A stretch of DNA of 64,000 nucleotides from Pseudomonadota bacterium (GTDB taxonomy: Bacteria; Bdellovibrionota; Bdellovibrionia; Bdellovibrionales; SG-bin7). Numbering within the stretch: position 1 is the first letter of the stretch; every line of letters begins with the position of its first letter. The stretch spans positions 1 to 64,000 of the forward strand of contig JAWXAY010000027.1 in the NCBI GenBank assembly GCA_034439715.1, read 5' to 3'. The translations under genes were made by a program, and so were the position numbers. Positions 11,748 to 39,801 of the stretch are shown piece by piece. A model generated the notes under the pieces. That model worked only from the letters and a program-made list of their open reading frames with translations. It had not been told where the DNA came from and ran no database searches.

Positions 11748-12179
11748 ATGTTTGCTAAAGAGGCCAAAATTCTTATCGTAGATGATATGACCAGCATTCG
11801 CGATTTGGTTCGTGTTTCTTTAAACAAACTGGGGTACGAAAACATCACCGAAGCCCAAGATGGAATGCAGGCCTTGGAAATGATTAAGTCACAGAAAAAA
11901 TTAGGGCGTCAATATGATCTCGTACTTTGCGACTGGAACATGCCAAGGATGATGGGAATCGATCTGTTAAAAACCGTTCGGCGAGATCCCGAATGGGAGT
12001 TTCTGCCGTTTATTCTCGTCACTACTGAATCTGAAAAAATCAATATACTAGAGGCCATTGCCTCTGGCGTATCCGACTATATCGTCAAGCCATTTTCGGT
12101 AACCGTGTTGCAAAACAAAATGGCCAGCGTCCACAAAAGACTTATAGAAACGTTAAAAAAAGGAAGGCCAGTAAGTTAA
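11748..12179 (+). CDS. CheY-like response regulator
   Basis: IVDD, CDWNMP, LVT and YIVKPF motifs. Confidence 0.92.
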   Translation: MFAKEAKILIVDDMTSIRDLVRVSLNKLGYENITEAQDGMQALEMIKSQKKLGRQYDLVLCDWNMPRMMGIDLLKTVRRDPEWEFLPFILVTTESEKINILEAIASGVSDYIVKPFSVTVLQNKMASVHKRLIETLKKGRPVS

Positions 12180-13558: not shown

Positions 13559-13559
13559 A

Positions 13560-15239: not shown

Positions 15240-15269
15240 GGGTCCCCCGGACGTAGTACGTACCCATTT

Positions 15270-15315
15270 AGGATACAAGGACCCTATTTATAATTCATTG
15301 AGTATTAATGAGCCA
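15270..15315 (-). promoter_or_regulatory. Island box plus -10 hexamer (module E promoter)
   Basis: Minus strand TGGCTCATTAATACTCA (15315-15299), then 23 bp, then TATCCT. Confidence 0.7.
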
Positions 15316-15347
15316 TACTAGTTGTCATCTCATCTAGAGACGCTGCA

Positions 15348-15827
15348 CTATATGGTGGGCACCTGGGTGCATCGTTGCAAATCAAGGGGATCAGTTGTAA
15401 GAGGGCCTCGCCAGACTCCATCAGTTCCGAGAGCTTGGAAACAAGTAAAAGTAGTCGCCGGTTCAGGCCAAATAAGATTTACGGTGTAGGGCGAATTAAA
15501 TGGAGCGATAAGATTGATCCAGCCGCCCGAGTTATTATAGTTGAAACGAAGCCCTTGCACTGGTCCGCTGAGAGTAACCTTGGCCCCAGTGGCGGTCGCA
15601 ACAACACCCATGACATAGGCCGGAGTATTTGGTGGCGGCAAAACGGGTGGTGGAGGCGGAGGCGGCGGCTCGGTGGGCGGTGGTTCGATCGGGGGGCCCA
15701 CTAATTCCCCTTCACTGTTTAGCTCGAGAGAGCCTTTCAAAATACCTGAATCGTTTGCACAATTATTGTAGCTCAACACCAGGAAGGCACATAAAATCAC
15801 AGTGAAAATACTATTTGATTTTCCCAT
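15348..15827 (-). CDS. Small putative lipoprotein with poly-Pro linker
   Basis: Signal ending SYNNC; PPPPPPP tract; C-terminal beta-rich domain with 2 Cys. A FliA-like GCCGAAAG lies at 15845-15838. Confidence 0.8.
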   Translation of the reverse strand: MGKSNSIFTVILCAFLVLSYNNCANDSGILKGSLELNSEGELVGPPIEPPPTEPPPPPPPPVLPPPNTPAYVMGVVATATGAKVTLSGPVQGLRFNYNNSGGWINLIAPFNSPYTVNLIWPEPATTFTCFQALGTDGVWRGPLTTDPLDLQRCTQVPTI

Positions 15828-15918
15828 CTCATGTATCCTTTCGGCGCAACCTAGACTTTCCTATAGGAATAAATTAAATAATATTTGAAAAGTCTGTGTC
15901 ATTTTGAGACACAGAACA

Positions 15919-16758
15919 CTAGATACAAGGATTATTGTGATTGTTGGGTAGCTTAAAATTATTAGGCTTCACCACTTGCCAACCTCGGCTAAGCAAGCTG
16001 TTAAAATTTGCCGTTGGCTGCTGATTTTGAGGGTCAAACCAAGTTTCATTTCCGGTGACCCCACATAGTGGTTCTGAGGGCGGCACAGTGCCATTTACTT
16101 TTCGCCATAACATCATGAGAGCGATGTGGTAACGAGGGCCTTGAAAATATTTAAGGCGAATGGGCAATCGCGTATCTGCGTTCATTTGTAGAGTCGTAGC
16201 TCCACAGCCCAGGCGCGTCGGATGATTGCCATCGTTATTAACTATAGTCGAATAAGCGTCACTAGATATTTTAGCATCTAATATTGATCCATCGTCAGAG
16301 AGCAATGCAACTTGATAATTGCCTGGCACGTTTTGGTTCGTAAGTCTTAATTCACTATAGATGTCGAGTGCGAAGTATTCGATCAATACTTTATTTTGTT
16401 CATCCCTAACAAAATCTCCGCCATCGATTAGGAATCCCACATCAAACATACGCGTGGGAACATTTAACTGAGAGAGAAACAACGGATTATTTGACCTGTG
16501 TCCAAAAGAAATAAATTCGTCAACCGATTTATAGCGCGGCTGGCTCTGATCTAAATAATAAATATCGCTCTGTAAACCTGAGTCAGGATCGATGGGATCA
16601 GTGCCTATATCACATATCGGAGGGTTAGAAAAAGGCGTGACAGGCCCGTTTACCTTATTGGCACTTGTCGAAAACTTGACACCCGCACATCCAGTTGTCA
16701 GACATACGGTTCCTATACATAGCGCCAACCTTAAAATACTCTGGGGGGATCTCTTCAT
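15919..16758 (-). CDS. PA14-domain lipoprotein
   Basis: LTTGC lipobox; SDDGS, NNDGNH and I.LKYFQGP PA14 motifs. Confidence 0.85.
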   Translation of the reverse strand: MKRSPQSILRLALCIGTVCLTTGCAGVKFSTSANKVNGPVTPFSNPPICDIGTDPIDPDSGLQSDIYYLDQSQPRYKSVDEFISFGHRSNNPLFLSQLNVPTRMFDVGFLIDGGDFVRDEQNKVLIEYFALDIYSELRLTNQNVPGNYQVALLSDDGSILDAKISSDAYSTIVNNDGNHPTRLGCGATTLQMNADTRLPIRLKYFQGPRYHIALMMLWRKVNGTVPPSEPLCGVTGNETWFDPQNQQPTANFNSLLSRGWQVVKPNNFKLPNNHNNPCI

Positions 16759-16797
16759 TATTTTCCTCTAATCTTTCCTAATAGTATATTTAACTGC

Positions 16798-16847
16798 AAA
16801 AAAAAGGCCACATCTCTGGGTGGGTGGGAGAGACTTGTGACTCTATT
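16798..16847 (-). ncRNA. Candidate small RNA or leader hairpin with CCCACCCACCC loop, copy 1
   Basis: GUCACA(AG)UCUCU-CCCACCCACCC-AGAGAUGUGGC-C-U8 downstream of box + TAGTAT; homologous to 35447-35497. Confidence 0.55.
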
Positions 16848-16853
16848 TTATTA

Positions 16854-16912
16854 ATACTACGTGGTTCAAATGGTGAATTAAATGAGTATTAATGAGCCAT
16901 TGAACAATGGCT
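16854..16912 (-). promoter_or_regulatory. Island box plus -10 hexamer, with an additional inverted half-site
   Basis: TGGCTCATTAATACTCA (16899-16883), then 23 bp, then TAGTAT; palindrome GAGCCATTG-AA-CAATGGCTC. Confidence 0.7.
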
Positions 16913-16939
16913 CGAATTGAAAATATTTTTTTAAAGGAA

Positions 16940-18505
16940 TTAAGCCCTTAACAAAAAGTTCAGCTCTGGCGCGGGTTGAACATCCGAATAGCTGTTATAA
17001 ACCGCAGCCGGGATTCCTAATGATTTGGCGACTGTTTTCCAAACGCTGGCACCAGAAACTCGCCCGCTGTTATCAGTAGAACCATTGGCCATAGTAACGC
17101 CATTAGCATCAGGCCTATGATAACTAAATGTGTAACTCGTACCATTATTCGCCGCTATGCGGATATCTCCGTAATAACCACCTCTTATTCGACCACCAGC
17201 GAGAACTACGGCATTTTTACCGCGATCACCGAACGATTCACATTCAATACCTCGGCCACCGTCGGTGGTATAAATTGCAATCAGTGTTCGATCGTAAACG
17301 CCTCGGGCTTTAAGTGTCTCGATAAGTCGAGCTAACGGAAGTGCAAACTGCTTAGACTGCGCTAGCATGGCTGCTTCTGGACGTGAACCGTGAACATCTC
17401 CGTAACAAAATTCCAAAGCCACGGTCCGCAAAGCTGCTGCCGAAACAAGTTTTGCTGCGTAAGCCGCTTGTTCCCAAATTGAGGCCACTGAACCACCAAA
17501 AGTAGTAAAACCCACATCAGGTACACCGGAACTCCAATACTGTCTTTCTAGAGCAGTCAGATTTAAATTTAGAGCAGTAGTAGGCCGCGCTAACTTAGAA
17601 TTAAAGTTTTGTATTTGGGTTAAGTGATCACTCGAAGCCAAGTCAGTATATTTAAGTCTATTTAAAAAACTCGCATCCACTCTGTTCAACAATCTTGTAA
17701 CTAAATCTTTTTGTTGAGCCAAAATGGAAGTGGCACTAGTCACATTGGCAAAGTTACTCAACAAAGTAGGCGTATCCGTAATTCTGTCAATTTGTGCGTC
17801 TACTAAATTAGCGGCGTGATGGTAAATGGCATGTTTACGGTCGCCGCGACCTAAACCCTTATAGGCAATTCCACGTCTTAAATTTCGATCGAGTTGCCTT
17901 TGATGAAAATTATGAAGAATGGCTGAGGTCGGCGTAGCACTGTAATGTCGCTCATTGCCGCCAAAGTCTCCCGCTTGAATAGCTGGTGAGAACTGACCGT
18001 CAATGTTCCACATTGACGTGCGTCCCGCACCTGCGTTGTAGTTTCGCCCTGGAGAACGTAAAGCGTTTGCCGCCTCATGGCCATGAATCGTTCCCATAGA
18101 TAGCTCACCCACTTCGATAACGGCAATTGAATCCAAATGAGGAATCAAAGAAAGTCCATCTGTACCAAGATAAAAATTATTGCCACCTCTTCGCAAAGTA
18201 TTAGGATCCTGTGACAATGCCACATTTCGGCCTGTGAAACCCCGACGAAGATTCGGATAAGTCGCGAGGCCCGGCGCCACAATGGCATTTAAAAAATCGA
18301 ATTGATCTCGTAAATTAATTTCTATAAAATTTGTAGGAATTGTACTTTCAAAACTTTGAGCGTAGGCCTCGCCCATAACTATATCCAAGCAACCAAAACG
18401 TAGCGCTGGGGGCACAAATGGTGAAGCCAAGACTAGTCCCAATATTTTTAAGAACTGTCGACGTTCTGTAATAGGCATTCTCTCAAAATCTAAAGGTTTT
18501 TTCAT
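16940..18505 (-). CDS. DUF1501-like Tat-exported protein (module D)
   Basis: ERRQFLK Tat motif, AYAQ cleavage site, GDVHG, TDGGR and LAGGRIRGG.YG. Start re-called to ATG 18505. Confidence 0.75.
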   Translation of the reverse strand: MKKPLDFERMPITERRQFLKILGLVLASPFVPPALRFGCLDIVMGEAYAQSFESTIPTNFIEINLRDQFDFLNAIVAPGLATYPNLRRGFTGRNVALSQDPNTLRRGGNNFYLGTDGLSLIPHLDSIAVIEVGELSMGTIHGHEAANALRSPGRNYNAGAGRTSMWNIDGQFSPAIQAGDFGGNERHYSATPTSAILHNFHQRQLDRNLRRGIAYKGLGRGDRKHAIYHHAANLVDAQIDRITDTPTLLSNFANVTSATSILAQQKDLVTRLLNRVDASFLNRLKYTDLASSDHLTQIQNFNSKLARPTTALNLNLTALERQYWSSGVPDVGFTTFGGSVASIWEQAAYAAKLVSAAALRTVALEFCYGDVHGSRPEAAMLAQSKQFALPLARLIETLKARGVYDRTLIAIYTTDGGRGIECESFGDRGKNAVVLAGGRIRGGYYGDIRIAANNGTSYTFSYHRPDANGVTMANGSTDNSGRVSGASVWKTVAKSLGIPAAVYNSYSDVQPAPELNFLLRA

Positions 18506-18506
18506 A

Positions 18507-19586
18507 TTATTGCCCCGCCATAAGTAAAGAACCAATAACCATCGGATGTCTTAAGCTCTCGAAAACAATCTGTTTAAAACTGGGGTCCTGATATTTTTGC
18601 TTTAGTTTGGCAGAAATATCTTTGACCACCCCACGATTAATAGTTTCATTGCCGTCTGTAAGTCGAATAAAGTACCGAACAGAGTTTCTAACGGAACATT
18701 CTGTAAAATTAGCATTATTCACCAAGGCTTGAGCAGCCTCTCTCAAATTATTTGAGGTCTGCCCAAACATTTGAGAAACTTCGGATCTCGCAAGGTCGGA
18801 AGTCACCATATGCGAAGTAAAAAGATCATTCACAGAAAGTCCGGGCTCAAGATTGGGATTTTGCAGGCCTGTGGCGGCAGCTTTATAAACTCCAAAAGCG
18901 TCAAATTTAACAAAAAATTGAGTGTGAGCACTGAATTGCCCATGGCACGCATAGCAAGCCGTACCATTGCCAAACTCTGCAGCTCCTATTGCTAAGTCAG
19001 CCGCAAACATAGGTATTAATGATTCTCTCGGCAGTCGCGGCTGTAAAGTGGTGGACATCGGATAAGACTGGCACGCAAACTGACGTAACGTATTACTAGC
19101 ACGAGAAAGATTAAATCGTCCGCTATACTGCTTTAGAAAAGCGCGAGTCGTTAACACGCCTGCCACAAATGGGGAGCCCGTATCACAACTTATTCTCTGC
19201 CTATTATTATCAACACAGTAATCCGCTGTTAAGATTTCAGAGTAAGGCCGATTCTGGCGAATTAAATAATCGAGAAGATTTGCCGGAAGTTCATAGTTAA
19301 TAGTGCCATCGTTTCCGCTAACACCGAGCTGGGTCTGAATTTGAATTCGGCTAGATTTAACAAAAAATTCAGAATCCACCCAAGACTGTAAAACTCTTTC
19401 TAAACCCACGTACCCCTCGCTCCTAAGGGTACTTCTCTCCGCAGCATTCAAGGGTCGACCAGTGAGCATCGAGCTCAGCCGCGCCATATAGTTTTCTATC
19501 TGCTGCGGAGTAAACGAACTGGTTGATTGCGCTTGCGCACTATTCAATCCTGTCAAAACAACTAAAATAAATATTAGATTTTTCAT
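18507..19586 (-). CDS. Secreted single-CxxCH protein, DUF1588/DUF1585-like core (module D)
   Basis: Sec signal AQA; AGVLTTRAFL; CYACH. Confidence 0.75.
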   Translation of the reverse strand: MKNLIFILVVLTGLNSAQAQSTSSFTPQQIENYMARLSSMLTGRPLNAAERSTLRSEGYVGLERVLQSWVDSEFFVKSSRIQIQTQLGVSGNDGTINYELPANLLDYLIRQNRPYSEILTADYCVDNNRQRISCDTGSPFVAGVLTTRAFLKQYSGRFNLSRASNTLRQFACQSYPMSTTLQPRLPRESLIPMFAADLAIGAAEFGNGTACYACHGQFSAHTQFFVKFDAFGVYKAAATGLQNPNLEPGLSVNDLFTSHMVTSDLARSEVSQMFGQTSNNLREAAQALVNNANFTECSVRNSVRYFIRLTDGNETINRGVVKDISAKLKQKYQDPSFKQIVFESLRHPMVIGSLLMAGQ

Positions 19587-20146
19587 TGTGCTACATACTC
19601 CAAAGAAGAAAGTGTTACATAACAGAGTACTTCGAGGCGAACGTCGTTTGATACGGCCAGTGCAGTTACATCATTTATATTACTTTGATCCTCAGCGTTC
19701 AAATCTCTTCCAAGAGCGGATTCTATAAATCCCCTAGCTGCAGCAGGAAAGGGGAATTTGGTCCGGAGTGCCAGCGATGAACAGTAAGGCTGAAGAGCTT
19801 GAGTCCATGAAGCCAATCGAGAGTCTGTCCAAGTTAAGTCTTGCGATACTCCTCTGGCAAAATCATAAGATCCCAATTCAATTTTTTTAGAATTAAGTTG
19901 AGCATAAAGTGCGACATCTGTGCTACCGATCAGAGAATTTAGTTTATTGATCCGAACATCAAACGGTAGAATTCGCACTGCACTCCTATCTATTTTAAAA
20001 AGACCAAGAGTTATTGACTCCGGAGGCACAAACAAGAATGATCCTGAAGAAGCGAGTTCTGACTTTTGGCTTTTAAAACCGCTGCAGTTACTATAAAAAA
20101 CGGCGACTACAAACAAAGATGCCAAATAAATTATTGATCTTTTCAT
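19583..20146 (-). CDS. Putative lipoprotein (module D)
   Basis: FYSNC signal; ALGRDL..E helix and C-terminal LC...LSSLEY. Start re-called to ATG 20146 (ATGA overlap). Confidence 0.8.
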   Translation of the reverse strand: MKRSIIYLASLFVVAVFYSNCSGFKSQKSELASSGSFLFVPPESITLGLFKIDRSAVRILPFDVRINKLNSLIGSTDVALYAQLNSKKIELGSYDFARGVSQDLTWTDSRLASWTQALQPYCSSLALRTKFPFPAAARGFIESALGRDLNAEDQSNINDVTALAVSNDVRLEVLCYVTLSSLEYVAQ

Positions 20147-21126
20147 GGAACCTGCCAATCTTGTGCATGACATAGGGTTAAAAATAGAGAGCGCCAGCCT
20201 TCTATCGTAGGATATTGTAGAGTGGTTGTTTGATTGACTAGGCTTTGCAATGCCGTGGTCACAGTAACCGGAGCAGTTCTGCCAACATAAAATAACCCGT
20301 AGGCATTAGAAATTTGTCCCGCTGTTGGTAACACGGTACTAGAGCCCGCACCAGCAAGTCCTCGAGCAAACTCTACCGCACCATCGTTAGATAATATTTT
20401 ATCGCACGTACGATAGACTAGTGCTGCGCGGGGTGACGTCATGCCTGGTATTATTGCGGCCTGACTTTCTGCAGAGCTGCACCCAAATGAGTAAGAATCA
20501 CAAGGTCCACCAAATTGTATCACATTATCTGCAATCGCACCTTTGGTTAATGGCGCTGCCACTGGTCCAAAAATTTCATTTAAAGTAGTGGCTACATAGC
20601 TTCGCGTTTCCAAGCGAATCACCCTTCTCACTCCCGTCGTGCCGCCCTTTGGGGGAGGCGGATTGGCGCCATTCTTTTTTTCATATGCCGCCCAGGTAAC
20701 CAAGGCCGCTGACATCTCTGAACCGTCGCTCGTACAAAACTGAGCATTGGCAATATCACTCTTACGGCAATGATTATTTTTTGATTGTTCTATAAAATAA
20801 GAATTTAATACATTTTCGAAATCGGCATATTTACGATTGTCAGATGTTTGTCCCGCCTTAGAAATCTCGTAGGACAAGTTGAGATCATTTTGCGCAAATA
20901 AAGGCTGTTGATTTGCACTGTGGCAACCTGCGCAGTTTTTTCTGGTGACGGCGTAAACAGAGGTGCGAAAAACTTCTTTGGCCAGTAAGATGTCAACTGA
21001 TGACTGGCTATTACTGCCAAATTCGTCACTTTTAAGTGAAGTAAATTTGCTGCAGTTTTGAAAACCCATCAATAGCGTCAAGCCCAGTGCTAGAAAAGCT
21101 ATTATAAGTTTAACGTTAAATTTCAT
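20143..21126 (-). CDS. c-type cytochrome-like lipoprotein (module C)
   Basis: FQNC signal; CAGCH; paralog of 24642..25589 with the shared C-terminus DWQVP. Confidence 0.82.
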   Translation of the reverse strand: MKFNVKLIIAFLALGLTLLMGFQNCSKFTSLKSDEFGSNSQSSVDILLAKEVFRTSVYAVTRKNCAGCHSANQQPLFAQNDLNLSYEISKAGQTSDNRKYADFENVLNSYFIEQSKNNHCRKSDIANAQFCTSDGSEMSAALVTWAAYEKKNGANPPPPKGGTTGVRRVIRLETRSYVATTLNEIFGPVAAPLTKGAIADNVIQFGGPCDSYSFGCSSAESQAAIIPGMTSPRAALVYRTCDKILSNDGAVEFARGLAGAGSSTVLPTAGQISNAYGLFYVGRTAPVTVTTALQSLVNQTTTLQYPTIEGWRSLFLTLCHAQDWQVP

Positions 21127-21151
21127 TTTTAGATTTCCCCAAATTCTACAG

Positions 21152-22924
21152 TTAGGATCTATTTTTTGCCAGCTCCACGTTATTCACAATGCCACTAGTG
21201 GCAGTTTCAAGAACCAAAGAACTATTATTAGGATTAATTTTTTCAACTCGTAAAAGATGCGACACGGTCGACGAAATGTGGCCTATGCCTAAGGTAGTAC
21301 TGGCACCATCTATTGTAACGGGTGCCGCCAATCCCCAACCGCCCCAGTTTCCAAAACCATTTCCGCCATTGTTAAGACAGTTGCCAACGACCATGGGTTT
21401 CTTAATGGCTCCCGAAATAAGTGTCGTATTAGAGTTTCTGGATTCATGACCTGTGCTACCGTCTGACCCCGGGTTTCTGCCAAAATCAGAGGAGATCTGA
21501 AAAACCGTTTCATCAAATAAGTTTTTAGACTTAAGCTGGCTAATCATTTCATAAAGACAAGCCGAGAGTGCGGTAAAAATAAATGAGTTTATAATAAGTC
21601 CCGTCCAAGCTCCTCCGCCGTGGGCATCGCCGTTCCAGTAGCCATTTCTTGAAACTATTTGTCCGCTATCAAAATCAACTGAATTTTGAACCAAAAGACT
21701 TTTTGTCTCACCTAAACTCATTCGTGCCGAACTCGAATAGCCATTGACGATTAAGAATTCAGCGACAGCAAAGCTCTCTGCAACCTCATCTATCATAGTG
21801 CTAGCTTGTATCATCGTCGCCAAATTTGCGTTCCTGACTTCCATTATATCAGGAATTCTAAGTTGAACTCGGAATCCATTATACCTGGCTTCGTTGTTAG
21901 TCTGGGGAGCAATATTTGCTGTAGATACCGGTTTATCAGTAATTCCTGGCATTGCTGTAGTCGCACACCTGGCAATGAGACCTCTGTATTTTGCTAAAAG
22001 CTGTTGGTAAACCGGTAGCAAATTTGTAATACCTTGCTTAATTAATGGCTCGGCAGAATTTCGAACCGAAAATAAAGCTTCTGAGCCCGGATACCTAGAC
22101 TTTGCAATAATACCTAACTGTGTGAGCGCGCCTTTGAGTGCAGAATCAATCGCATCACGTCGTGACATAAAAGTTGCAGAAAGCCCGTCGTTAACAACTC
22201 TATTCGGAAGAAAGGGATTGTAATCACCTGAGCGAGCAAAAGGTGCTAATAATTGATTGAGTGGATCTCCACCAGTACATGTAGCTATGCCGCCGCCCAT
22301 GCCTGAACGAAAGTTATTAGCGCCGCCAAACGAAACTGCAGGTAGTGATTTTGTTGAACGATCAGCCACCAAGCCATCTAAACTTGGTGCTGAGCCGGAA
22401 GGCCTAATTTGCATTGACGACGCCTCCGCGTGAAAATCAATAAGTCCGTCAAAGCTTCGCATCATTAACATATTGTCCAAAAGGCTTTCCATCGGAACCA
22501 CACCGCCATTTGAAGTGGGAATATTTGATCCCCACAAGTGTGGCATATTTAAAGTTACACCATTTCGGGTAATAGCTCTTGTGGCATATATCGGATTATC
22601 GTAAAAACCACCTCTGTCGGTAAATCTGGTAAATACATGGGCCGTCCTAGCATCGGGTTGTATGATGCTTGTATTGGATTCGTAAGGAACTAACGGCTGA
22701 TCCCAATACCAACGGGTCATTCCCCCGCCGAGATGTAAATAGACATAATTGCGCACTGGCAGACCCGAATTGACAGCTTGGGCATGTGCTTTATTAACAA
22801 GTCCATCGACTAAGCCATCCATTAATAGTTGCATGGGTCCGAGAGCGACTCCCACGCGGCCAATGGACTTCATGAAGTCTCGACGGCTCATTGCAGGCTG
22901 TTTTTTTTGTTGACGTTTTTTCAT
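21152..22924 (-). CDS. DUF1501-like Tat-exported protein (module C)
   Basis: SRRDFMK, AHAQ, L.GG...W, DAHGGG and SDFGRNP..GTGH motifs. Confidence 0.82.
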   Translation of the reverse strand: MKKRQQKKQPAMSRRDFMKSIGRVGVALGPMQLLMDGLVDGLVNKAHAQAVNSGLPVRNYVYLHLGGGMTRWYWDQPLVPYESNTSIIQPDARTAHVFTRFTDRGGFYDNPIYATRAITRNGVTLNMPHLWGSNIPTSNGGVVPMESLLDNMLMMRSFDGLIDFHAEASSMQIRPSGSAPSLDGLVADRSTKSLPAVSFGGANNFRSGMGGGIATCTGGDPLNQLLAPFARSGDYNPFLPNRVVNDGLSATFMSRRDAIDSALKGALTQLGIIAKSRYPGSEALFSVRNSAEPLIKQGITNLLPVYQQLLAKYRGLIARCATTAMPGITDKPVSTANIAPQTNNEARYNGFRVQLRIPDIMEVRNANLATMIQASTMIDEVAESFAVAEFLIVNGYSSSARMSLGETKSLLVQNSVDFDSGQIVSRNGYWNGDAHGGGAWTGLIINSFIFTALSACLYEMISQLKSKNLFDETVFQISSDFGRNPGSDGSTGHESRNSNTTLISGAIKKPMVVGNCLNNGGNGFGNWGGWGLAAPVTIDGASTTLGIGHISSTVSHLLRVEKINPNNSSLVLETATSGIVNNVELAKNRS

Positions 22925-24396: not shown

Positions 24397-24412
24397 GCTT
24401 CCCCCTCCTAAA

Positions 24413-24458
24413 ATAGTATCGGCAATTTGCGCTAAAATCTATGAGTTCTTATGAGCCA
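24413..24458 (-). promoter_or_regulatory. Island box plus -10 hexamer, with overlapping FliA-like -10 (module C/D promoter)
   Basis: TGGCTCATAAGAACTCA (24458-24442), then 23 bp, then TACTAT; GCCGATAC at 24423-24416. Confidence 0.68.
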
Positions 24459-24641
24459 ACAGTGTCTCGCTCTGATACATGTTAGTTGCTGATTCTACTA
24501 GGGTATGTTGCAATTCCTATTCCCGTCACAATGGGTTTTACGCGGCAACTGCAGGGTGTTTTCTGACACCTGTATGTTAGTTTTACGTTTTCTGTTACTT
24601 AAAAAAAACAGATACACGTTGTTGAGTATCAGTTTTAATTT

Positions 24642-25589: not shown

Positions 25590-25600
25590 AATATCACTTC

Positions 25601-27346: not shown

Positions 27347-27355
27347 GTTTCTCCT

Positions 27356-28831
27356 CTATAACCGCTGCGCTGAACTTCGATATAAGTCACTACTAAAAAT
27401 TGATTGAATGAGAGCTTTTAAATTTTGACTATTTTTTAAATCCAAGCCTAATTTTATGACGATGTCTCGGTAAGATTTTTCACTACTGCTCAATGCTGGC
27501 AAACTCGTGTCTCCGGGATCCTGCAAATTGACTTTGATCCCGGTAAAAAACTGAAAATATTTAGCAGCCGTACATACATATAGATCTTCGGTTTCCGAAA
27601 GCGCTTCTCCTAGAGTTGCTAGGCTGCTAACTTGTCGATCGATGAGATTTCCGTTATAACTCCGATAATATAATTTCCCGTTAGTGGGGCGCTGAAAATA
27701 ACTAGAATCGGCGTCTACAAAGCCATTCTCTGCAGGTTGAGTTGCTGCCCACTTTCTAGTATGGACTGTGCCGCCAAATAAAACATAGGAGTTTGTAGCG
27801 TAACTAATATTGCGAGCAACACTTGCCATACCATCCATAGAGGAGTGACAACTCATACAACTACCGGCTTTACGAAAAGGCGGAGTCAATGCCGTAACAA
27901 CTGTTTGAATAAGTGGTGTTGCGTCGGTGATTCTAACGGCCGGAAGCTCACGACATAGTACATCGCTGTAAACAGCCTTGGCCCAGCGTCGATTCATAAC
28001 CAAACCGCCGTCGGAGGCACCCGTATCGGGACGTCCCAAATTTAATAACAAATAGGAAGGGGTTCCAATTATTCCCCCACCATGGGCTTCATTGGGACGT
28101 AACGGCCCGGGACTACCAAAATATCTATTGGCAACCTCGGTACCATCTAAAGAATTTGTAACCAAATTTATTTTTTCTGTGTTCAAAGATAAACGACGAA
28201 CTCCCAAAAGCTCGCCAGTCTGCACTAAAGGTGGATTCCAATTAACTCTCGTTGCCCCCGCATTTGGAACACTTGTAGACCACTGCTGCAGCTTATCGCC
28301 ATTCAATGCGTTTCTATCGTAAGGCGACGGTCCAATAGAGCGCAGGGCTTCCATGGCACTATTACCTGTAACAATCTCAGAAAACCGGAGACCATTAGTC
28401 AGCAAAACGCGAGTGACATGTAATCCCGCCTCTTGCTCATCATGAATGTAGGGCTGGTAATTAAAATCCTCTAAAAAGGGAATGGCCTTCATAATATTAT
28501 CATTGGGAAACCACGAGCGATGAAAATCGTTCATATTTAATAACACTTGTTTTGCTTCGTCGTTACTGTTGACGAGGCTACCCTCGTTAGGCTGGGTCGC
28601 AATTAGTTGCACCCCATTGATAACTCTCATACAGGCATCTACAGCTTTAAGCGTACCAGCTTTTACCTGGGCACGCAGCGGATGAGAAAGTGGCAAACTT
28701 TTTTGGGTGAGATGGGCATAGCATCGACTAAAAAGAGCTAGCTCTGAAAGAGGCTCGCGTGAACGATCCTGGCCGAGGGCAGAGTTCGACAATAAAAATA
28801 ATAGAATCCCCATGAAAACATGACTGGTCAT
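27356..28831 (-). CDS. Secreted single-CxxCH protein, DUF1588/DUF1585-like (module B)
   Basis: Sec signal; LFSRCYAHLT; GGIIGT.SYL; RRWA...LCR.LP; CMSCHSSMD. Confidence 0.82.
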   Translation of the reverse strand: MTSHVFMGILLFLLSNSALGQDRSREPLSELALFSRCYAHLTQKSLPLSHPLRAQVKAGTLKAVDACMRVINGVQLIATQPNEGSLVNSNDEAKQVLLNMNDFHRSWFPNDNIMKAIPFLEDFNYQPYIHDEQEAGLHVTRVLLTNGLRFSEIVTGNSAMEALRSIGPSPYDRNALNGDKLQQWSTSVPNAGATRVNWNPPLVQTGELLGVRRLSLNTEKINLVTNSLDGTEVANRYFGSPGPLRPNEAHGGGIIGTPSYLLLNLGRPDTGASDGGLVMNRRWAKAVYSDVLCRELPAVRITDATPLIQTVVTALTPPFRKAGSCMSCHSSMDGMASVARNISYATNSYVLFGGTVHTRKWAATQPAENGFVDADSSYFQRPTNGKLYYRSYNGNLIDRQVSSLATLGEALSETEDLYVCTAAKYFQFFTGIKVNLQDPGDTSLPALSSSEKSYRDIVIKLGLDLKNSQNLKALIQSIFSSDLYRSSAQRL

Positions 28832-28951
28832 CTGTATCCCCGACTCATCTATTAAGCTTAACTCTTGGTCTCTAAAATGTACACGAGCAAAAAAAAACTA
28901 AAAAATAACTGTCTCAACTTGAGAAAACCTGTAAAAAAAATAAACAGTTAT

Positions 28952-30406
28952 TTAAACAATAAAGAGTTCCGGAATGTCGCCCGAGATCTCGCCCAATCTC
29001 GTGGGTCCACCGACCGCTTTCATGGCTGAGATCAATACTTTTGCGGGATGCTCTCCCCGTTTAATAATATGTTTACCAGGTTTTAATCCGCCCGCAGCAC
29101 CCGCGATAAGAACCATCATATTGTCTGTAGAGTGTGAGCCAATATCTCTGACATCCCCACCAGCATTATCCACAACGCCATGGCCACCCTCGAAGACAAA
29201 AGTCAACGCACAGTTGTCCAACATATTTCCAGCGCCCTCAGGAGTTGATTTAAGTTTATTAAGTAAATAACAAAAGTGTTCTATATGCCAGGCATGCACA
29301 AGTGACATAGAGTAAGCATTAATTCCGTTTCCAGAATTCAAATTAGCAGCAACTTTAACAGATGGTGTTCCTGCCGGAGGGGCTGTTCGCCCGGCACCGT
29401 GGCCCAGCTCATGTTGATCACCAGCAGAATTACTTAGTTCAGGATAGAGTCCAGTCACACCCATGTGACTTTGTGCCGTGGTCAACATTTGTGTCGCGAC
29501 CCGAGAAGCATCACACACAAATGCCATATAAATTAAATCTAAGAAAATTCTATTTCGTTTAAATTCGTCACTGTAATTGGTGCCAATTGCGGGATCTGCG
29601 CCAGGATTCGCAAAAGGTTGACACGTGCCGCCGCTTGACAAGCTTTTTTCAAAATCACGAATTTGATCAAAATGTTGAGCCAGACGTTGTTGATCATTCA
29701 CTCCGACCTCTGACAATATTTTTGTTCTCTGACCGGTAATAAAGTCAAGCACACTTCGCTTTTTAATAAGTGCTTGCTGTAGTTCAGGGGAACTTCCCGA
29801 CGAAGTAAACAAGGCCTGATAAGCCCGAAGTGGCGAAGTTTCATTTCTCAGTCCCTGAATATTGCCGTTTCCCGCGTCCCTAAAAGTTAAAATTTCTCGA
29901 CCAGAAAAATCAAATCCCTGCACATAAAATGCCGGAGAGGCTTGATAGTTGAGAGTGCGAAACTTAGACGTTGCGCCAATGATCTTAGATACAATTTGAT
30001 CTGCTCCTTCACTGCGTTGAGTGGTTCGAACTCCTGTTATTTGTGGGTAGTGACTGTCGGCATGAAATTCGCCATCGCGGCCACCCGGTAACCCGATACC
30101 TGGAATAGTGAGTCCTGAAACAATGCTGATATCCCTCTGAAGATTGTATGTGCCCAAGGGTTTAAGTCCCGGAGAAAGAGGGAAGTTTCTGCCAAGCGCT
30201 GTGGGAATTGTAAAATTCAATGGGTCTCCATCAGGTCCCAACGACTGACCATCAAAGAATATTCCAAAGCGACTCGGCACTGGGCCGGCAGCAAAAGCAC
30301 CGTTACTATTTAACATGATATCTAATATTGGCAGTGAGAGCATAATTCCGCCCGCACCTTTTAAAAATGTCCTGCGATTCATTCGATGTATTTTCTGTGC
30401 ACCCAT
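28952..30406 (-). CDS. DUF1552 family protein with Tat signal (module A)
   Basis: NRRTFLKG..LSLP; RSVLD; AFVCDASRVA; QHELGH; GSHS..NM. Confidence 0.88.
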   Translation of the reverse strand: MGAQKIHRMNRRTFLKGAGGIMLSLPILDIMLNSNGAFAAGPVPSRFGIFFDGQSLGPDGDPLNFTIPTALGRNFPLSPGLKPLGTYNLQRDISIVSGLTIPGIGLPGGRDGEFHADSHYPQITGVRTTQRSEGADQIVSKIIGATSKFRTLNYQASPAFYVQGFDFSGREILTFRDAGNGNIQGLRNETSPLRAYQALFTSSGSSPELQQALIKKRSVLDFITGQRTKILSEVGVNDQQRLAQHFDQIRDFEKSLSSGGTCQPFANPGADPAIGTNYSDEFKRNRIFLDLIYMAFVCDASRVATQMLTTAQSHMGVTGLYPELSNSAGDQHELGHGAGRTAPPAGTPSVKVAANLNSGNGINAYSMSLVHAWHIEHFCYLLNKLKSTPEGAGNMLDNCALTFVFEGGHGVVDNAGGDVRDIGSHSTDNMMVLIAGAAGGLKPGKHIIKRGEHPAKVLISAMKAVGGPTRLGEISGDIPELFIV

Positions 30407-30407
30407 A

Positions 30408-31979
30408 CTACCGCCTTAAAAATCGATCAGAAGTTACTAATGCTAAAATAAGATCTTTTAAAAATCCCGTTTTATTAAATTCCGTCTGTAGGCCGGCCAA
30501 CATTTCACTGTCTTTAGTTTCAGGCTCACTGCCCATGCCAAAGTGAAAGACTTGGCGCACAAAGCAGCTTTTAAATTGACTGGAGCGAATGAGAATCTCA
30601 GATAACTCAGCTGGACCCGAAAATGCATTTGAGCCAAATACTTGGCCCTTGCCCTCTATAAAACACGTACTTTTTAAGCTGCCATCACTATTATAATCAA
30701 ACTCTCTATATTTACCAGTACGGTCAAAGCGCTCGAGTCCAAAGCCAATGGGGTCCATTTGTAGATGGCAGGCAAAGCAAGTGGACCCTTGCCGACGATG
30801 TGAATCGTAGCGATTGTATTTACAGTCAGGCTGTCCAACAACCAATGGTGGAGGACTGTCAACATTTGTATTTGGGGGCGCTGGCGGTACGATTTTACAA
30901 AGCAGTCGCTCAGTGACAAACTTCCCGCGCAGTGTGGGACTCGTGTCACCAAATTTAGGAACTGCCGACAAAAACGCCGCCGTGCTAAGTATGCCTTGTC
31001 GATTTGGAGGTAAACCTACGAGTGAAGGCGTACCTGTTAGACCTTGAATTTCATAAATATTGCCGAGCGTACTACTAATGGTTGTTTGGCGAGAGGTAAA
31101 CAAATCCTGCCAAGGCTTTTGCTCCGTAACCAAAATGCGTCTTACCAGAGTGTCAGCCTCTTGTTTCATTGCTGCTGACAATATGTCTCCCGCCGGAAGT
31201 TTAGCATAACCTAACCAAAAGCCATGGAGCTTTTGAATTTGTGCGGGCGCTCTGGGCGAGGCCAGCATTGTACTTGCAACTTGCCGAACTTGGCTGGGAG
31301 TAGAAAGCTGCTGGCTTTCTGCTAATTTCAAAAGAGCATCATCAGGACCGCTGCCCCAGATAAAAAATGACAAACGGCTGGCGATATCAAAGTCAGTGAG
31401 GGTGGTTTTCCCTTCGATTCTATATAAAAATTTTGGATGCTGGAGAAAAACGCGAATGAGCATTTCGACACCCGCATCAAAACTTCCTAACTGTGTCACC
31501 TGCTTTAAGCCATATGCTTGCAGCCCTGTAATTTCGTCTTGAGTAAGTGGTCTGCGAAAAAATAGTCGGCCTAATTTTTTTACTATTGATACAATACACG
31601 TCTGATCTGCGCCTGCGAGGCCTGAGCAACCCAGAACACTTTGTTTTTTGGCGGGGTCGCTCATAAATCTTTGGGCTGCGTCGGCAGCAAAGTTGTCCAG
31701 ACCCTGAATAAGCGGGGCTGAGGGATTTTGCTGGCGCACATCATTATCAAAGGGATTAGTTTCTTCAGCTGGCAAGAATGTCTCAGAACGAGATAAATTG
31801 TCGTCTAAAATAAGTGTTAGGGACTTGTTAATTTCATCGTTTGTGAGGCGTCGAAGAGTGGGTTGGCCACTTAGAGAACTAAGTCCCGATTCGCTATTTT
31901 TAGTCGACTTAAACCCATCGCAATTTCCATAGAATACAATAAGAAAAGCTGATAAAAACAACCATCCTATAAATCTCAA
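30408..31979 (-). CDS. DUF1587/1595/1592/1588/1585 multidomain heme-motif lipoprotein (module A)
   Basis: FYGNC signal; LRRLT; ASRLSFFIWGSGPD; TSPTLRG..V..RLLC; CFACHLQMDPIGFGLE. Confidence 0.9.
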   Translation of the reverse strand: MRFIGWLFLSAFLIVFYGNCDGFKSTKNSESGLSSLSGQPTLRRLTNDEINKSLTLILDDNLSRSETFLPAEETNPFDNDVRQQNPSAPLIQGLDNFAADAAQRFMSDPAKKQSVLGCSGLAGADQTCIVSIVKKLGRLFFRRPLTQDEITGLQAYGLKQVTQLGSFDAGVEMLIRVFLQHPKFLYRIEGKTTLTDFDIASRLSFFIWGSGPDDALLKLAESQQLSTPSQVRQVASTMLASPRAPAQIQKLHGFWLGYAKLPAGDILSAAMKQEADTLVRRILVTEQKPWQDLFTSRQTTISSTLGNIYEIQGLTGTPSLVGLPPNRQGILSTAAFLSAVPKFGDTSPTLRGKFVTERLLCKIVPPAPPNTNVDSPPPLVVGQPDCKYNRYDSHRRQGSTCFACHLQMDPIGFGLERFDRTGKYREFDYNSDGSLKSTCFIEGKGQVFGSNAFSGPAELSEILIRSSQFKSCFVRQVFHFGMGSEPETKDSEMLAGLQTEFNKTGFLKDLILALVTSDRFLRR

Positions 31980-31996
31980 GTATCCCCCTTAGCACT

Positions 31997-32042
31997 AGTT
32001 TATCGGAAATTTCCTAAAAATTATCTACGTATTATTGAGCCG
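31997..32042 (-). promoter_or_regulatory. Degenerate island box plus -10 hexamer, with overlapping FliA-like -10 (module A promoter)
   Basis: CGGCTCAATAATACGTA (13/17 match; 32042-32026), then 23 bp, then TAAACT; TCCGATAA at 32007-32000. Confidence 0.55.
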
Positions 32043-33231
32043 GCAGCCAAAGGCTGTAAACCCAAATAGGATCTCCAATAGAGTCTAGCGTTTCAATCAT
32101 TGCGAGCTGACCAGTTGCTTGATCGATCTTAAACGAAGTTAATTTTTTGGTCCGCATACCTGCCACATAAATATATCGACCCGAGGGATCAATCTCGAAC
32201 TCTCGCGGCACACCTTCAACTTTTTGCTGTCCCCTACTCGTTAAAAACCCACTTATGGGATCAATAGCAAAAATAGCTAGACTATTATCACCTCGATTTG
32301 AGGCATACAAATATTTTGCATCCGGCGTAATATGAATGTCAGCACAAAAATTGGAATTGCCGTTAACTCCTGCCGGGAGAGTTGAAAGTGAATTTTGGAA
32401 ACTCAGCTGACCATTGGTCGGATCCTCAGAATAAACGGTCACGCTGTCTCCCAATTCGTCAACTACGTAAAGTAAATTCTTGGTGGGATGATGTACGACA
32501 TGTCGGGGACCAGAACCAATTGGCGCCTGAATTTTTGCCGGAGAATTAGGGGTCAATAAACCAGTCAATGAATTAAGTAAAAACTGCGAGATCGTATTTG
32601 CCACAGTGTTGGTGACATACACAAACTTACTATTTTGAGTGCTTATGGCAGCGTGCGAATTAGTGTCTGTATTTTGTGTGTCTGTTGGTGTTTCGCTGAG
32701 GCTGCCATCGGGCCGAATTGGCAGAACAACAACTTTGCTGTCGGAGTAAGAAGGTATCAACAGATTTTTTTGAAGGGAATCGACATGAATATAAACAGGA
32801 TTGATGCCGATTGCCACCTCTTGCGAAAACGTCAGGCTTCCGTTGGCCTGATCAATGAGAAATGCCGCGACCGACCGTCTGGCACTCAAACCCGCATAGA
32901 GATATTTTCGATTGGGATGAATGCCGAGCGGTACAATTTCACCCGCGATGGAGGCTGCACTTGTCTGTGTAAGTTTCCCACTTTGGGGGTCAATAACAAA
33001 AGTAACTAGGTTGTCGACATCTTTATCGATAAGGGCCATAAACAAAAAAAACTTACCCTGACCTTTAGGCGGCAGCCCTGCGGGTATTGGATCGGGAGGC
33101 GCTGAACTTTCCAAAGGCAATTCAAAGCTGGCTTGATCTACCGTTGCCGTAAATTTATTGCAGTTGGTATAACTTAACACGAGCAATGTGAAAATCAGAA
33201 TGAAATTAAACGGGCGACTTACTGCTGCCAT
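32032..33231 (-). CDS. Exported lactonase (Pgl/cycloisomerase-2 family 7-bladed propeller)
   Basis: GSGPRH, ADIHITPD..YLYASNRG and PREF motifs; N-terminal SYTNC signal. Confidence 0.88.
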   Translation of the reverse strand: MAAVSRPFNFILIFTLLVLSYTNCNKFTATVDQASFELPLESSAPPDPIPAGLPPKGQGKFFLFMALIDKDVDNLVTFVIDPQSGKLTQTSAASIAGEIVPLGIHPNRKYLYAGLSARRSVAAFLIDQANGSLTFSQEVAIGINPVYIHVDSLQKNLLIPSYSDSKVVVLPIRPDGSLSETPTDTQNTDTNSHAAISTQNSKFVYVTNTVANTISQFLLNSLTGLLTPNSPAKIQAPIGSGPRHVVHHPTKNLLYVVDELGDSVTVYSEDPTNGQLSFQNSLSTLPAGVNGNSNFCADIHITPDAKYLYASNRGDNSLAIFAIDPISGFLTSRGQQKVEGVPREFEIDPSGRYIYVAGMRTKKLTSFKIDQATGQLAMIETLDSIGDPIWVYSLWLPAQ

Positions 33232-35330
33232 GCACTCACCATGCTAAATGGTGGCTGTGGCTTTGAAGTTGTCGTGCCATCGCCGAGTTGTCCCGCGCTA
33301 TTATTTCCCCAGCAATATGCTTGCCCCTGAACTACGGCACAGTTGTGATGCGTTTCATCGACGCTGCCACCTGCAAAGTAAGATACGTCCCCCGGGGGCA
33401 GTCCAACTACTTTTAGTGGTGTTGGCTTGGCGGTATTAAAATTAGCGCCGGGTGCGCCTTGACGATTGTCGATATCATTTCTTCCCCAGCAATACAGGTC
33501 ACCACCTGAGATGGCACAATACCCGCCTGCGATCGCACCCAACATGGTGACACCAGAAAGCCCGATAACTTCAAGAGCTGTATTGGACGAATTCGCAATG
33601 TTGGCAGGACCCTGCCCCAGGGCTCCCCAATTATATCCCCAGCACTTTACCGTAGCATTCGGCATTAATGTGCACATACCGGATGAAATTGCTGAAAGCT
33701 GTAGAACGTTTGAACCTGCAGGAAATGAAGTGGTTGGAATAGGCCGAGGGTTACAGCGAAGGGCTCTCGTGTTCACGGTAACAGGTCCGCAGTCCGAGTA
33801 GAAGCCGTATGAAACATTGGGGTTGGATACCGTAGGTAAAACCATTCCTTCGGTAACATATGGAAGACACACCTTATAACTAGCAGCGGGTGGATTAGCT
33901 TCTAACAGACGGGAACCTTGATCGCAGACGTTGAAATTGCCAAATCGAGAATCATTTAATCCCCAACACTTAACTCCGCCGTCCTTGACGCCACAAGTGT
34001 AGCCCAACCCTGTGGCTATTGAGGTCACCCCTACCGCCATGTCCAAAACAGGTCGGGCATCTGGGTAATCAAGTTCACCAACGTCATGTAGTAATCCTGG
34101 GGCCTCCGCAAAACCAAGTTGTCCATACCTATTGGCTCCCCAACAGAAAGCGGCACCGCCAGCAACAGCGCAGGAGTGGTTCACGCCCGCATAAATTTTG
34201 CTGACGTTACTAAGTAAATTGCCAGCTGTATCTCTCACTAAAACCGGTGTTTCAACATCGGCACCGCCATTATTACTGCCCGCTTGAAAATTTGAATTCC
34301 AACCCCAACACTTAACATTTCCGTTTTGTATGGCACAGACATGTTCCTTGCCGACAGATAGTGAAGTCACGCCCGAATTTAATCCGGGAACTCTGAGTGG
34401 CACCGAGCTTGAAACCACAGATGTAGGTTGGCCCAACTGCCGATTTTGATTACTTCCAAAACACTGCACGCCGCCTCTAACAATTGCGCACGTAAAATTT
34501 ATCCCCACGCCTACGGCAGTCACAAAAGGAGTGGGCGGTAGAACGGGTTCTACGCTCATGCGCCGACAGGTAGTTGCGACGGCATAATCTGTATTATTAA
34601 TTGAGGTGACAAGGGTGCCGTTAAACACGATATTGTCGGCAGAATTATCGTCAACTCTAAAGTCAAATTTATACTCTGTAGAATAAAATCTGGTTTGGCT
34701 TCCTAAAGTAGACTTAATTACAGCAAAATCAGAAGTCCTTTGTGCGGTGACGGCTCCATTGACGAATGTGCCTAAATAAATCCTGCCCTTTTCTGTCCTT
34801 TGACTTGAGTTTAATCGAATGACAGCGTCAATTCCCACATTATTGTCCTTAAATTGACAAAAAGCCTCAGTGGCGTTTTCGATCGGGGCATTTTCGATCG
34901 GGGCATTAACATCTTCCACCTTCTCGAATACAGAATTTCGATAAACTAAAAAATCTTCGTCAAATGAAGAAATTTGCACTCCTGAAGTGGCCAGTGGCGA
35001 GGTAAATGTTGTAACGGTACAGTTGTCTTTAGTAATCGCCAAGTCGGTACTGTTGACGGTCATTACCGCTTGGGCCGATTTTACGTTTGAGCAAAGATAG
35101 TCAGGATATGTTCTAATATAATCACCCAGCTTAGGTTTACCATCAAAACCATCTCCGCCACCTTGTGCGGCCGTAACCTCAATCGATTTTTCACCAACTG
35201 AACTGAACTTCACCGATTCTGAATTTGAACAGCTTTGGTAATTCATCGAAGATAGGAATAAAAAAAGAAAGGTCAATCTTCCAAACAGTCGAAATCTTTT
35301 TTTTGAGTGGCCTTCGCTGTTCAAAATCAA
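33219..35330 (-). CDS. RCC1-repeat surface protein
   Basis: Repeated H.CA....V.CWG.N..GQLG; NYQSC signal; GGGDGFDGK. Confidence 0.88.
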   Translation of the reverse strand: MILNSEGHSKKRFRLFGRLTFLFLFLSSMNYQSCSNSESVKFSSVGEKSIEVTAAQGGGDGFDGKPKLGDYIRTYPDYLCSNVKSAQAVMTVNSTDLAITKDNCTVTTFTSPLATSGVQISSFDEDFLVYRNSVFEKVEDVNAPIENAPIENATEAFCQFKDNNVGIDAVIRLNSSQRTEKGRIYLGTFVNGAVTAQRTSDFAVIKSTLGSQTRFYSTEYKFDFRVDDNSADNIVFNGTLVTSINNTDYAVATTCRRMSVEPVLPPTPFVTAVGVGINFTCAIVRGGVQCFGSNQNRQLGQPTSVVSSSVPLRVPGLNSGVTSLSVGKEHVCAIQNGNVKCWGWNSNFQAGSNNGGADVETPVLVRDTAGNLLSNVSKIYAGVNHSCAVAGGAAFCWGANRYGQLGFAEAPGLLHDVGELDYPDARPVLDMAVGVTSIATGLGYTCGVKDGGVKCWGLNDSRFGNFNVCDQGSRLLEANPPAASYKVCLPYVTEGMVLPTVSNPNVSYGFYSDCGPVTVNTRALRCNPRPIPTTSFPAGSNVLQLSAISSGMCTLMPNATVKCWGYNWGALGQGPANIANSSNTALEVIGLSGVTMLGAIAGGYCAISGGDLYCWGRNDIDNRQGAPGANFNTAKPTPLKVVGLPPGDVSYFAGGSVDETHHNCAVVQGQAYCWGNNSAGQLGDGTTTSKPQPPFSMVSAWQQ
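34876..34905. repeat. Perfect 15-bp tandem duplication inside the RCC1 gene (NAPIE x2)
   Basis: TTTTCGATCGGGGCA repeated twice, in frame. Confidence 0.9.
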
Positions 35331-35373
35331 CCCCCGCGAGGTACATACTTTAGTCTAGATACTTACTTTAGTC

Positions 35374-35401
35374 CTATCGGACAGAACCAGTATAAATTTG
35401 A
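35374..35401 (-). promoter_or_regulatory. FliA-like promoter for RCC1-lactonase
   Basis: TCAA-N16-TCCGATAG. Confidence 0.5.
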
Positions 35402-35446
35402 GGCGTATTTTATTTATTAATACCCTCTCATTTTGAGCCATTCAGG

Positions 35447-35497
35447 AAAAAAAAGCCGCAACTCTTGGGTGGGTGGGGAGAGAGTTGCGGCCTGTAT
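35447..35497 (-). ncRNA. Candidate small RNA or leader hairpin with CCCCACCCACCC loop, copy 2
   Basis: Perfect 11-bp stem GCCGCAACUCU/AGAGUUGCGGC followed by U8, downstream of box + TAATAT. Confidence 0.6.
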
Positions 35498-35503
35498 TTA
35501 TTA

Positions 35504-35563
35504 ATATTACCGCGCTCATTTCGATAAATACATTAGTATTAATGAGCCAATAAATTTAGCTCA
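35504..35563 (-). promoter_or_regulatory. Island box plus -10 hexamer, with inverted half-site
   Basis: TGGCTCATTAATACTAA (35549-35533), then 23 bp, then TAATAT; plus strand TGAGCCA-N7-TAGCTCA. Confidence 0.7.
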
Positions 35564-39788: not shown

Positions 39789-39801
39789 GCTACCACCCTT
39801 T

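Follow-up and report, generated by a model that had tools for sequence, protein, structure and literature searches.

What controls a long run of genes for exported proteins in a member of the Bdellovibrionales is the question raised by this locus. The window analysed is a stretch of 64,000 nucleotides (contig JAWXAY010000027.1 of assembly GCA_034439715.1, positions 1 to 64,000; G000:C27:1-64000 in our numbering, where G000 is the 3.26 Mb genome of the window and other G-numbers, such as G003, are further genomes of the same order, giving a comparison set of 384 genomes including G000). Every gene from position 12176 to 40563 lies on the minus strand, and within this island an earlier note had described five copies of a minus-strand box, each followed after exactly 23 bp by a TAnnnT hexamer, and had read them as activator-dependent sigma70 promoters bound by a winged-helix factor. 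It is likely that the box is the operator of an adjacent protein, built of tetratricopeptide repeats (TPRs) and winged helices, which would activate sigma70 promoters for exported proteins.

A box at a fixed distance from the -10 hexamer

The coordinates used to name the boxes are the low ends of the minus-strand 17-mers. Three copies are exact, namely box 1 (15299-15315; -10 hexamer TATCCT at 15270-15275), box 2 (16883-16899; TAGTAT at 16854-16859) and box 3 (24442-24458; TACTAT at 24413-24418); box 4 (32026-32042; TAAACT at 31997-32002) is degenerate, with three mismatches, and box 5 (35533-35549; TAATAT at 35504-35509) carries one. Box 1 faces a DUF1592/DUF1552 gene pair (12176-15278), box 3 a DUF1501/cytochrome operon (16940-24396) and box 4 a second DUF1592/DUF1552 pair (28952-31979). 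Boxes, spacers and hexamers were all found as the earlier note had given them: the gap to TAnnnT was exactly 23 bp at five of five sites, and the -35 hexamers are poor, departing from TTGACA at 3-5 of six positions.

The box was also found to stand above background. At no more than one mismatch the window contains five matches, compared to 0.30 +/- 0.58 in shuffled sequence (0/100 shuffles reached five); one of these five, at 21704 on the plus strand, is intragenic and lacks a -10. Exact matches number five genome-wide, three of them in the island, and the remaining two have no TAnnnT at 23 bp. The combination of box, 23 bp and TAnnnT occurs four times in G000, always in the island, with three single matches over the 383 other genomes and one in the control. 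When each site was left out of training in turn, the five sites ranked 1, 1, 5, 5 and 5 among 24,620 non-coding candidates, beaten solely by other island sites. The margin for 32026 (rank 5) was narrow, at 12.8 bits versus 11.9 bits for the best non-island site; with a matrix made from G003 alone it ranked 1.

The sites at 16883 and 35533 are homologous over ~110 bp and are copies of one promoter-hairpin cassette, so that four independent sites are counted rather than five; the other three have in common solely the box and the -10. An inverted TGAGC arm lying upstream of both 16883 and 35533 was discarded as a candidate element, since it is not shared at a constant spacing.

The candidate regulator

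The protein proposed to read the box is encoded at 35580-37100 on the minus strand, its stop codon lying 30 bp upstream of box 5. It is a candidate activator of 506 amino acids with TPRs at residues ~1-310, an OmpR-like winged helix at ~330-431 and a second winged helix at ~440-499. No Pfam or NCBIfam family could be assigned to it; TPR_19 matches 41 of 81 family members, and a few match helix-turn-helix (HTH) families. A structure model from an 81-row alignment (predicted local distance difference test, pLDDT, of 95) replaced a poor single-sequence model (pLDDT 52) and displayed a TPR superhelix, the OmpR-like winged helix and the second winged helix. The N-terminal 310 residues are all-helical TPR, with no receiver domain. 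In fold searches, which covered the TPR part alone, this part matched RapI, NprR and PlcR (Z 16.8-19.0, root mean square deviation 4.2-5.6 Å), and the near-invariant residues R54, Y87, W127, N156 and R271 suggest a ligand pocket.

Winged helix 1 aligns colinearly and end to end with five Trans_reg_C domains of G000 (87 columns, E 0.0011, probability 20%); a direct Pfam search of the regulator gave no Trans_reg_C match, and the secondary structure of the model does correspond. In the predicted recognition helix the window's subclade has K390 (12/12) and D393 (10/12), where the wider family has R (52/69) and Q (42/69); in the computed alignment these positions fall on the base-contacting residues of PhoB.

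The regulator family was found in 117 of the 384 genomes (~30%), with up to 12 matches per genome; in the genus g31 it is present in 6 of 44 genomes. The subclade comprises eleven relatives at 43-52% identity and, among the 384 genomes, occurs in G000 and G003 only; scans of metagenome and genome collections returned the sequence of the window itself, a single partial match of 40 residues and the one subclade locus already known. DNA context was examined at the G003 locus, the ten other relatives (P0002-P0005 and P0007-P0012) being outside the comparison. Two response regulators encoded at 9176 and 11748 were considered as box binders and rejected, each being a single receiver domain. From its position and the distribution described below, it is likely that the 35580-37100 protein binds the box directly.

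The box geometry accompanies the regulator family

A training matrix of 17 sites (three from the window and 14 chosen by eye near relatives) was fixed before 70 unseen loci were scored at a threshold of at least 8 bits, with offsets of 10-36 bp scanned freely (27 offsets). Among held-out promoters lying 1-3 genes from a regulator, 11/294 matched at offset 23, whereas the 26 other offsets averaged 0.58 (nominal Poisson 3e-11, kin not being independent), and the matches came from nine genomes. Matches at this offset were found at 0/193 promoters 4-6 genes away, 4/138 at seven or more genes, 1/53 of the regulators' own promoters and 1/1,677 promoters of G000 outside the island. A refined family matrix, made from all loci minus the window (143 regulators, spacings of 22-24 bp allowed), gave the consensus TC-nnn-YCA-W4-TRTCAG-T at 52 of 587 promoters from 40 loci, and 34 of these 52 sites stand at 23 bp. 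By crude patterns, 41/45 box targets were signal-like compared to 745/1,230 other genes, and 30/45 were lipoprotein-like compared to 241/1,230.

The window's own variant of the box recurs in G003. With a window-only matrix, the top offset-23 match among all regulator loci (19.9 bits) lies ~3.6 kb upstream of the G003 regulator and a second (13.2 bits) also lies less than 4 kb upstream of this gene; both stand ahead of unrelated exported proteins. Five window-type sites are present in G003 on four contigs, all intergenic and all facing genes, and the same pattern finds four in G000; the other 339 genomes have 19 matches, at most two each, and the reversed pattern gives 16. The earlier note had taken the regulon to be island-specific, which does not hold as a rule given this spread, and a detectable DUF1552, DUF1592 or DUF1501 homologue is encoded at only 14 of 142 other regulator loci. 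The consensus of the ten window-type sites is asymmetric, TGGCTCA-WW-AATAC-NN-A. A CTCA direct repeat, formerly proposed as the recognition unit, is kept at 3/5 window sites, and positions 15-16 vary across the ten; it follows from the consensus that 32026 counts as a good site and that the repeat is incidental.

These data also bear on whether the repeats are by-products of local promoter duplication, or sites of some other factor or alternative sigma encoded elsewhere. The cassette homology of 16883 and 35533 and the paralogy of the island's modules fit such an origin, which is nevertheless quite improbable: the remaining three sites are alike in box and -10 alone, in G003 this variant stands ahead of genes that are unrelated, and the geometry fades with distance from the regulator. 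To our knowledge, a 23-bp spacer also exceeds what known sigma factors span.

Several observations weigh against assigning the box to the neighbouring protein. With the refined family matrix, all five window sites receive negative scores (-0.5 to -10.1 bits); window sites and family consensus have in common the YCA, the A/T run, the TR and the distance, and differ at positions 1 and 14-17. What ties the window to the family is thus the common geometry, a consensus shared in part, and a single further genome. For the 143 regulators, no more than 40 loci had a box nearby. Four of the five G003 sites were known before the window-type pattern was written (the fifth was new), and this pattern misses 24442; G000 and G003 are members of a single family, and four of the nine held-out genomes come from the same genus. 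A second G000 paralog (G000:C33:24943-26427) has neither an adjacent partner gene of the kind described below nor an offset-23 box. The OmpR-like match is weak at its probability of 20%, and the TPR fold match is not specific to peptide sensors, LGN tying with Rap and NprR.

Pairwise repeat searches per locus, an insensitive approach, were positive at 4/72 loci including the window and at 2/107 background windows, and unseeded motif discovery returned the ribosome-binding site and the palindrome treated below, nothing else.

Three further loci may be recorded here. The G000:C33:24943-26427 paralog is followed, after its stop codon, by a direct repeat of 12-bp period. Locus L209 (G346:C12) carries four family-type boxes at 23 bp, all preceding exported proteins, one of which has cytochrome c and malectin domains, and forms a second clear local regulon. 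At L213 (G003:C1) a window-type box overlaps a palindrome upstream of a prepilin-like gene, which hints that such regulons can take in pilus parts.

A partner lipoprotein linked to the regulator

Beside the regulator lies a gene (33219-35330, minus strand) for a lipoprotein of 703 amino acids which, like the palindrome described below, had no place in the earlier note. It has a signal-like N-terminus and a predicted lipid-anchored Cys34 (both by pattern only), a GGGDGFDGK motif (35136-35162), an unnamed ~200-residue domain containing cysteines and RCC1 repeats. An N-terminal G[NG]GxG[YF]xGK motif was found in one protein among 3,044 G000 genes, namely this one. Of 29 motif proteins in the initial loci, 26 adjoin a regulator, compared to 146 of 1,109 genes; in held-out loci the corresponding figures are 30 of 42 and 141 of 1,018. 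The motif lies ~20 residues past the lipid-anchor cysteine and opens the unnamed domain, in which cysteines are conserved (partner residues ~50-255); variable domains, for example RCC1 or LamG, follow on its C-terminal side.

A profile of the partner domain detected a neighbour of 87 of the 143 regulators and had no match in the locus for 40. It matches 93 genomes, of which 90 also have the regulator, and in a large protein library the domain forms 1,303 clusters at 50% identity. An Atlas search with the domain gave no usable feature match and only sub-threshold lipocalin/NlpE-like structure rows. The box stands directly ahead of a partner gene at 14 of the 52 refined sites; in the window the partner's own promoter region (35373-35439, minus strand) has a palindrome at 35425-35439 and a FliA-type CCGATAG near 35373-35381. 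A functional link, in which a signal from the partner lipoprotein would control the TPR domain, is quite probable.

An order-wide palindrome and FliA-type elements

The palindrome TCTCA-N3-TGAGA (full form GTCTCA-N3-TGAGAC) is enriched in G000, with 28 copies compared to 1-9 at other spacers. It is abundant in two complete genomes without the regulator, G046 and G082 (50 versus 2 and 47 versus 1), and is therefore presumed to be read by a separate factor; one copy lies inside the first 500 bases of each of these two chromosomes. Within 60 bp upstream, 19 of 39 family boxes have a palindrome, 13 times at 1-7 bp, compared to 547 of 13,698 controls. In the window a degenerate copy of 13.6 bits lies 11 bp upstream of box 1 (15327-15341), another of 11.0 bits 5 bp upstream of box 3 (24464-24478) and a weak one of 4.9 bits upstream of box 2 (16909-16923), with further copies at 15896-15910 and 28911-28925. 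A palindrome just ahead of the box looks like the layout of a two-factor promoter, and the motif is a candidate master-regulator site, as it precedes boxes and FliA-type -10 elements alike. Whether the boxed promoters would be co-dependent on the palindrome's factor is, in our judgement, evenly balanced. Downstream of a palindrome and a FliA-like -10, a proline-rich lipoprotein is encoded within 15348-16758, without a box of its own.

The overlap of a FliA-type CCGATA with the -10 at 24442 and 32026, pointed out previously, is present at both sites: the TA of the -10 hexamer doubles as the TA of CCGATA, and at box 3 the FliA-type element is GCCGATAC at 24416-24423. The dual-sigma control which the earlier note suggested from this overlap may or may not apply. 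The FliA -35 position, 16 bp upstream, reads CATAG at 24442 and TAGAT at 32026, each 2/5 versus TTAAG, an element weakly conserved across the 116 CCGATA sites of G000. CCGATA was found upstream of 26/108 regulators and 13/91 partners compared to 62/1,261 other genes. In the available part of the source, FliA promoters of Bdellovibrio bacteriovorus are attack-phase promoters (PMC3627812); if that result holds here, the higher frequency at regulators and partners would fit attack-phase expression.

Could the box itself then be a half-site variant of GTCTCA-N3-TGAGAC, read by the global factor at promoters that are mainly FliA-dependent? The left half, GCTCA, resembles TCTCA, and the palindrome is enriched, occurs in the island and precedes CCGATA, which overlaps two of the sites. 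The right half of the box, ATAC-NN-A, is however unlike an inverted half-site after 3 bp, and full palindromes stand apart, 5-11 bp upstream of the boxes. The palindrome is moreover abundant in genomes without the regulator, where box-23-TAnnnT is absent; its distance to CCGATA is variable, mostly 37-78 bp; and FliA overlap is lacking at three of the five window sites and at all family sites (0/32). This explanation is considered highly unlikely.

The same elements bear on the sign of control. The neighbouring protein might bind the box as a repressor, for example by masking the FliA -35 at 24442 and 32026 until freed by a signal; the FliA -35 position does overlap the final two box bases there, and regulator genes often have a FliA-type -10, as counted above. 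A repressor has no need of a near-exact distance to the -10, such as the peak at 23 bp in the free scan and among the refined sites, and because the -35 elements are poor these promoters would be weak alone. Repression is accordingly rated improbable. The earlier reading of sigma70-type promoters with a poor -35 is supported, as, probably, is that of a winged-helix factor abutting it, given the candidate gene beside box 5 and the geometry that accompanies its family in held-out genomes; that this factor activates, rather than represses, is a fairly probable reading of the promoter sequences.

Probable target modules, predicted hairpin RNAs and neighbouring genes

The island encodes two DUF1592/DUF1552 pairs, three DUF1501-like modules, a lactonase-type propeller, the RCC1-repeat lipoprotein and the 506-amino-acid regulator. 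CxxCH is present in seven of its proteins, a twin-arginine translocation (Tat)-type signal in five and a lipobox-like cysteine in most others. The target modules at 12176-15278 (with a likely TTG start near 15239) and 28952-31979 each consist of a PSD/PSCyt3 cytochrome lipoprotein and a Tat-signal DUF1552 protein; the accessible text of a paper on Verrucomicrobia states that PSCyt/PSD have no known function and suggests that they are connected with carbohydrates (PMC5615132). The target operon at 16940-24396 encodes two Tat-signal DUF1501-like proteins, three CxxCH proteins and a small lipoprotein. A paralogous DUF1501 module (24642-28831) has no box of its own, the palindrome at 28911-28925 being nearby. 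All of these lie on the minus strand.

Two hairpin RNAs of ~50 nt are predicted on the minus strand, at 16798-16847 (RNA 1: C-rich loop, U-tail; -10.7 kcal/mol, z -1.55) and at 35447-35497 (RNA 2, its paralog; -20.4 kcal/mol, z -6.1). Both retain the loop CCCACCCACCC, and stem changes, read by hand, are one two-sided and one one-sided. RNA 1 may double as terminator of the 16940-24396 operon and RNA 2 of the regulator transcript. The loop was not found above control in three relatives; a crude duplex scan gave no conspicuous targets, the best island gene ranking 143 and 250 of 3,039; and the sole match of an Rfam scan was a tRNA-Val. Downstream of hairpin 1, also within 15348-16758, a 279-residue lipoprotein that shares 41% identity with a domain on C16 is encoded without its own box.

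An 898-residue lipoprotein and a 253-residue beta-barrel-like protein, neither with a family, are encoded at 37128-40563; their genes lead straight on to that of the regulator and may be cotranscribed with it. Elsewhere in the window, an integrase adjoining tRNA-Val together with DUF3987 and PD-(D/E)XK genes (~52000-59320) probably marks an integrated element that has no connection with the island, and two convergent dihydrouridine synthase genes lie on opposite strands at 5426-7394. Four DNA sequencing runs agree with the assembled sequence.

A proposed mechanism

The regulator would sit at about -52 to -36 and recruit sigma70 polymerase to promoters with a poor or absent -35, often with the palindrome's factor cooperating from just upstream. 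That the two different winged helices of one chain read the asymmetric site is about as probable as that they do not. The predicted output is the switching on of exported cytochrome/Tat-enzyme modules and the two putative 50-nt RNAs. The partner lipoprotein is the obvious candidate for the signal source, and release of a peptide followed by its import is the best guess for how the signal would cross from the periplasm-facing side to the cytoplasm. Direct binding of a released GNGxGYxGK-type peptide to the TPR domain is nonetheless doubtful; a complex prediction for the regulator and a 34-residue partner segment scored 0.02 against a mark of 0.32, uninformative in either direction.

More broadly, and only tentatively, predatory Bdellovibrionales may have a multi-copy trans-envelope system of their own, in which a lipoprotein (GNGxGYxGK segment, transducer domain and variable outer sensor) would free a peptide for the neighbouring TPR–double-winged-helix activator; every such pair would control a separate exported set, together with an order-wide master factor. 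If true, RRNPP-like peptide sensing would have been built independently in a Gram-negative predator.

Significance and comparison with known systems

Apart from FliA, little of the gene regulation of predatory bacteria has been mapped. What is gained here is a regulator family (~30% of the order's genomes), a predicted operator with a subclade-specific variant, a partner domain tightly linked to the family and another motif that is found order-wide. In addition, DUF1552/DUF1592 and DUF1501 cytochrome modules of unknown function are placed under one predicted inducible switch, which offers a handle on what they respond to. In the literature covered, from which most subscription journals are absent, nothing was found that describes the regulator, its partner, the box or the palindrome.

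Parts of the locus recall known systems. The hairpins have C/U-rich loops, and G-rich ribosome-binding sites occur in the genome, as with the RepG and CJnc190 small RNAs, described in the accessible part of the report as pairing an exposed C/U-rich loop with a G-rich mRNA target (PMC8687705); unlike these, they are only ~50 nt and may be terminators. With the FliA promoters of B. bacteriovorus there is a CCGATA in common, which occurs at two of the boxes and upstream of the partner gene and of many regulators; the differences are a poor match to the TTAAG -35 at the two boxes and an overlap that the wider family does not retain.

In the SARP/AfsR regulators of Streptomyces, as far as the available text goes, an N-terminal OmpR domain precedes the BTAD, and AfsR has its site 8 nt from the -10 on the upstream side, overlapping the -35 (PMC11301090). 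The regulator is like them in joining a predicted OmpR-type DNA-binding domain to TPR-like helices and in being a cluster-situated (here predicted) activator at a suboptimal -35. It differs in placing the TPR first and having a second winged helix, and in a box that ends 23 bp, rather than 8 nt, upstream of the -10; there is no BTAD among its Pfam matches and no ATPase match, and the AfsR model scored 14 bits against a cut-off of 1430.

Criteria for RRNPP systems, in the part of the source available, are a propeptide of 10-100 amino acids, Sec export, a receptor of ~250-500 amino acids with TPRs, adjacent genes and an imported mature peptide that binds the TPR groove (PMC10075063). Like the RRNPP(A) members Rap, NprR, PlcR and AimR, the present system has a cytoplasmic TPR protein of ~500 residues (here 506) adjoining a gene for an exported protein (87/143 regulators), and paralogs with separate regulons. 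It differs in occurring in a Gram-negative predator, in having two C-terminal winged helices where RRNPP has an N-terminal HTH, and in its neighbour, a lipoprotein of 703 residues (relatives mostly 230-870) rather than a 10-100-residue propeptide; the partner is outside that range, and no search aimed at tiny open reading frames was made. By analogy, the system resembles RRNPP peptide sensing and is not a member of it.

The promoters themselves are closest to those of OmpR/PhoB-family and other class II activators and to CRP co-dependent promoters such as melAB and malK. Shared features are a winged helix 1 predicted to be OmpR-like, a site abutting the -35 and, often, a global-factor site just upstream, together with the class II combination of a poor -35 and an abutting site at fixed distance (peak at 23 bp in held-out loci); the differences are the lack of a receiver domain or cognate kinase and an asymmetric 17-bp site. 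On the best reading, the regulator would work in the manner of a class II activator and perhaps in that of an RRNPP receptor.

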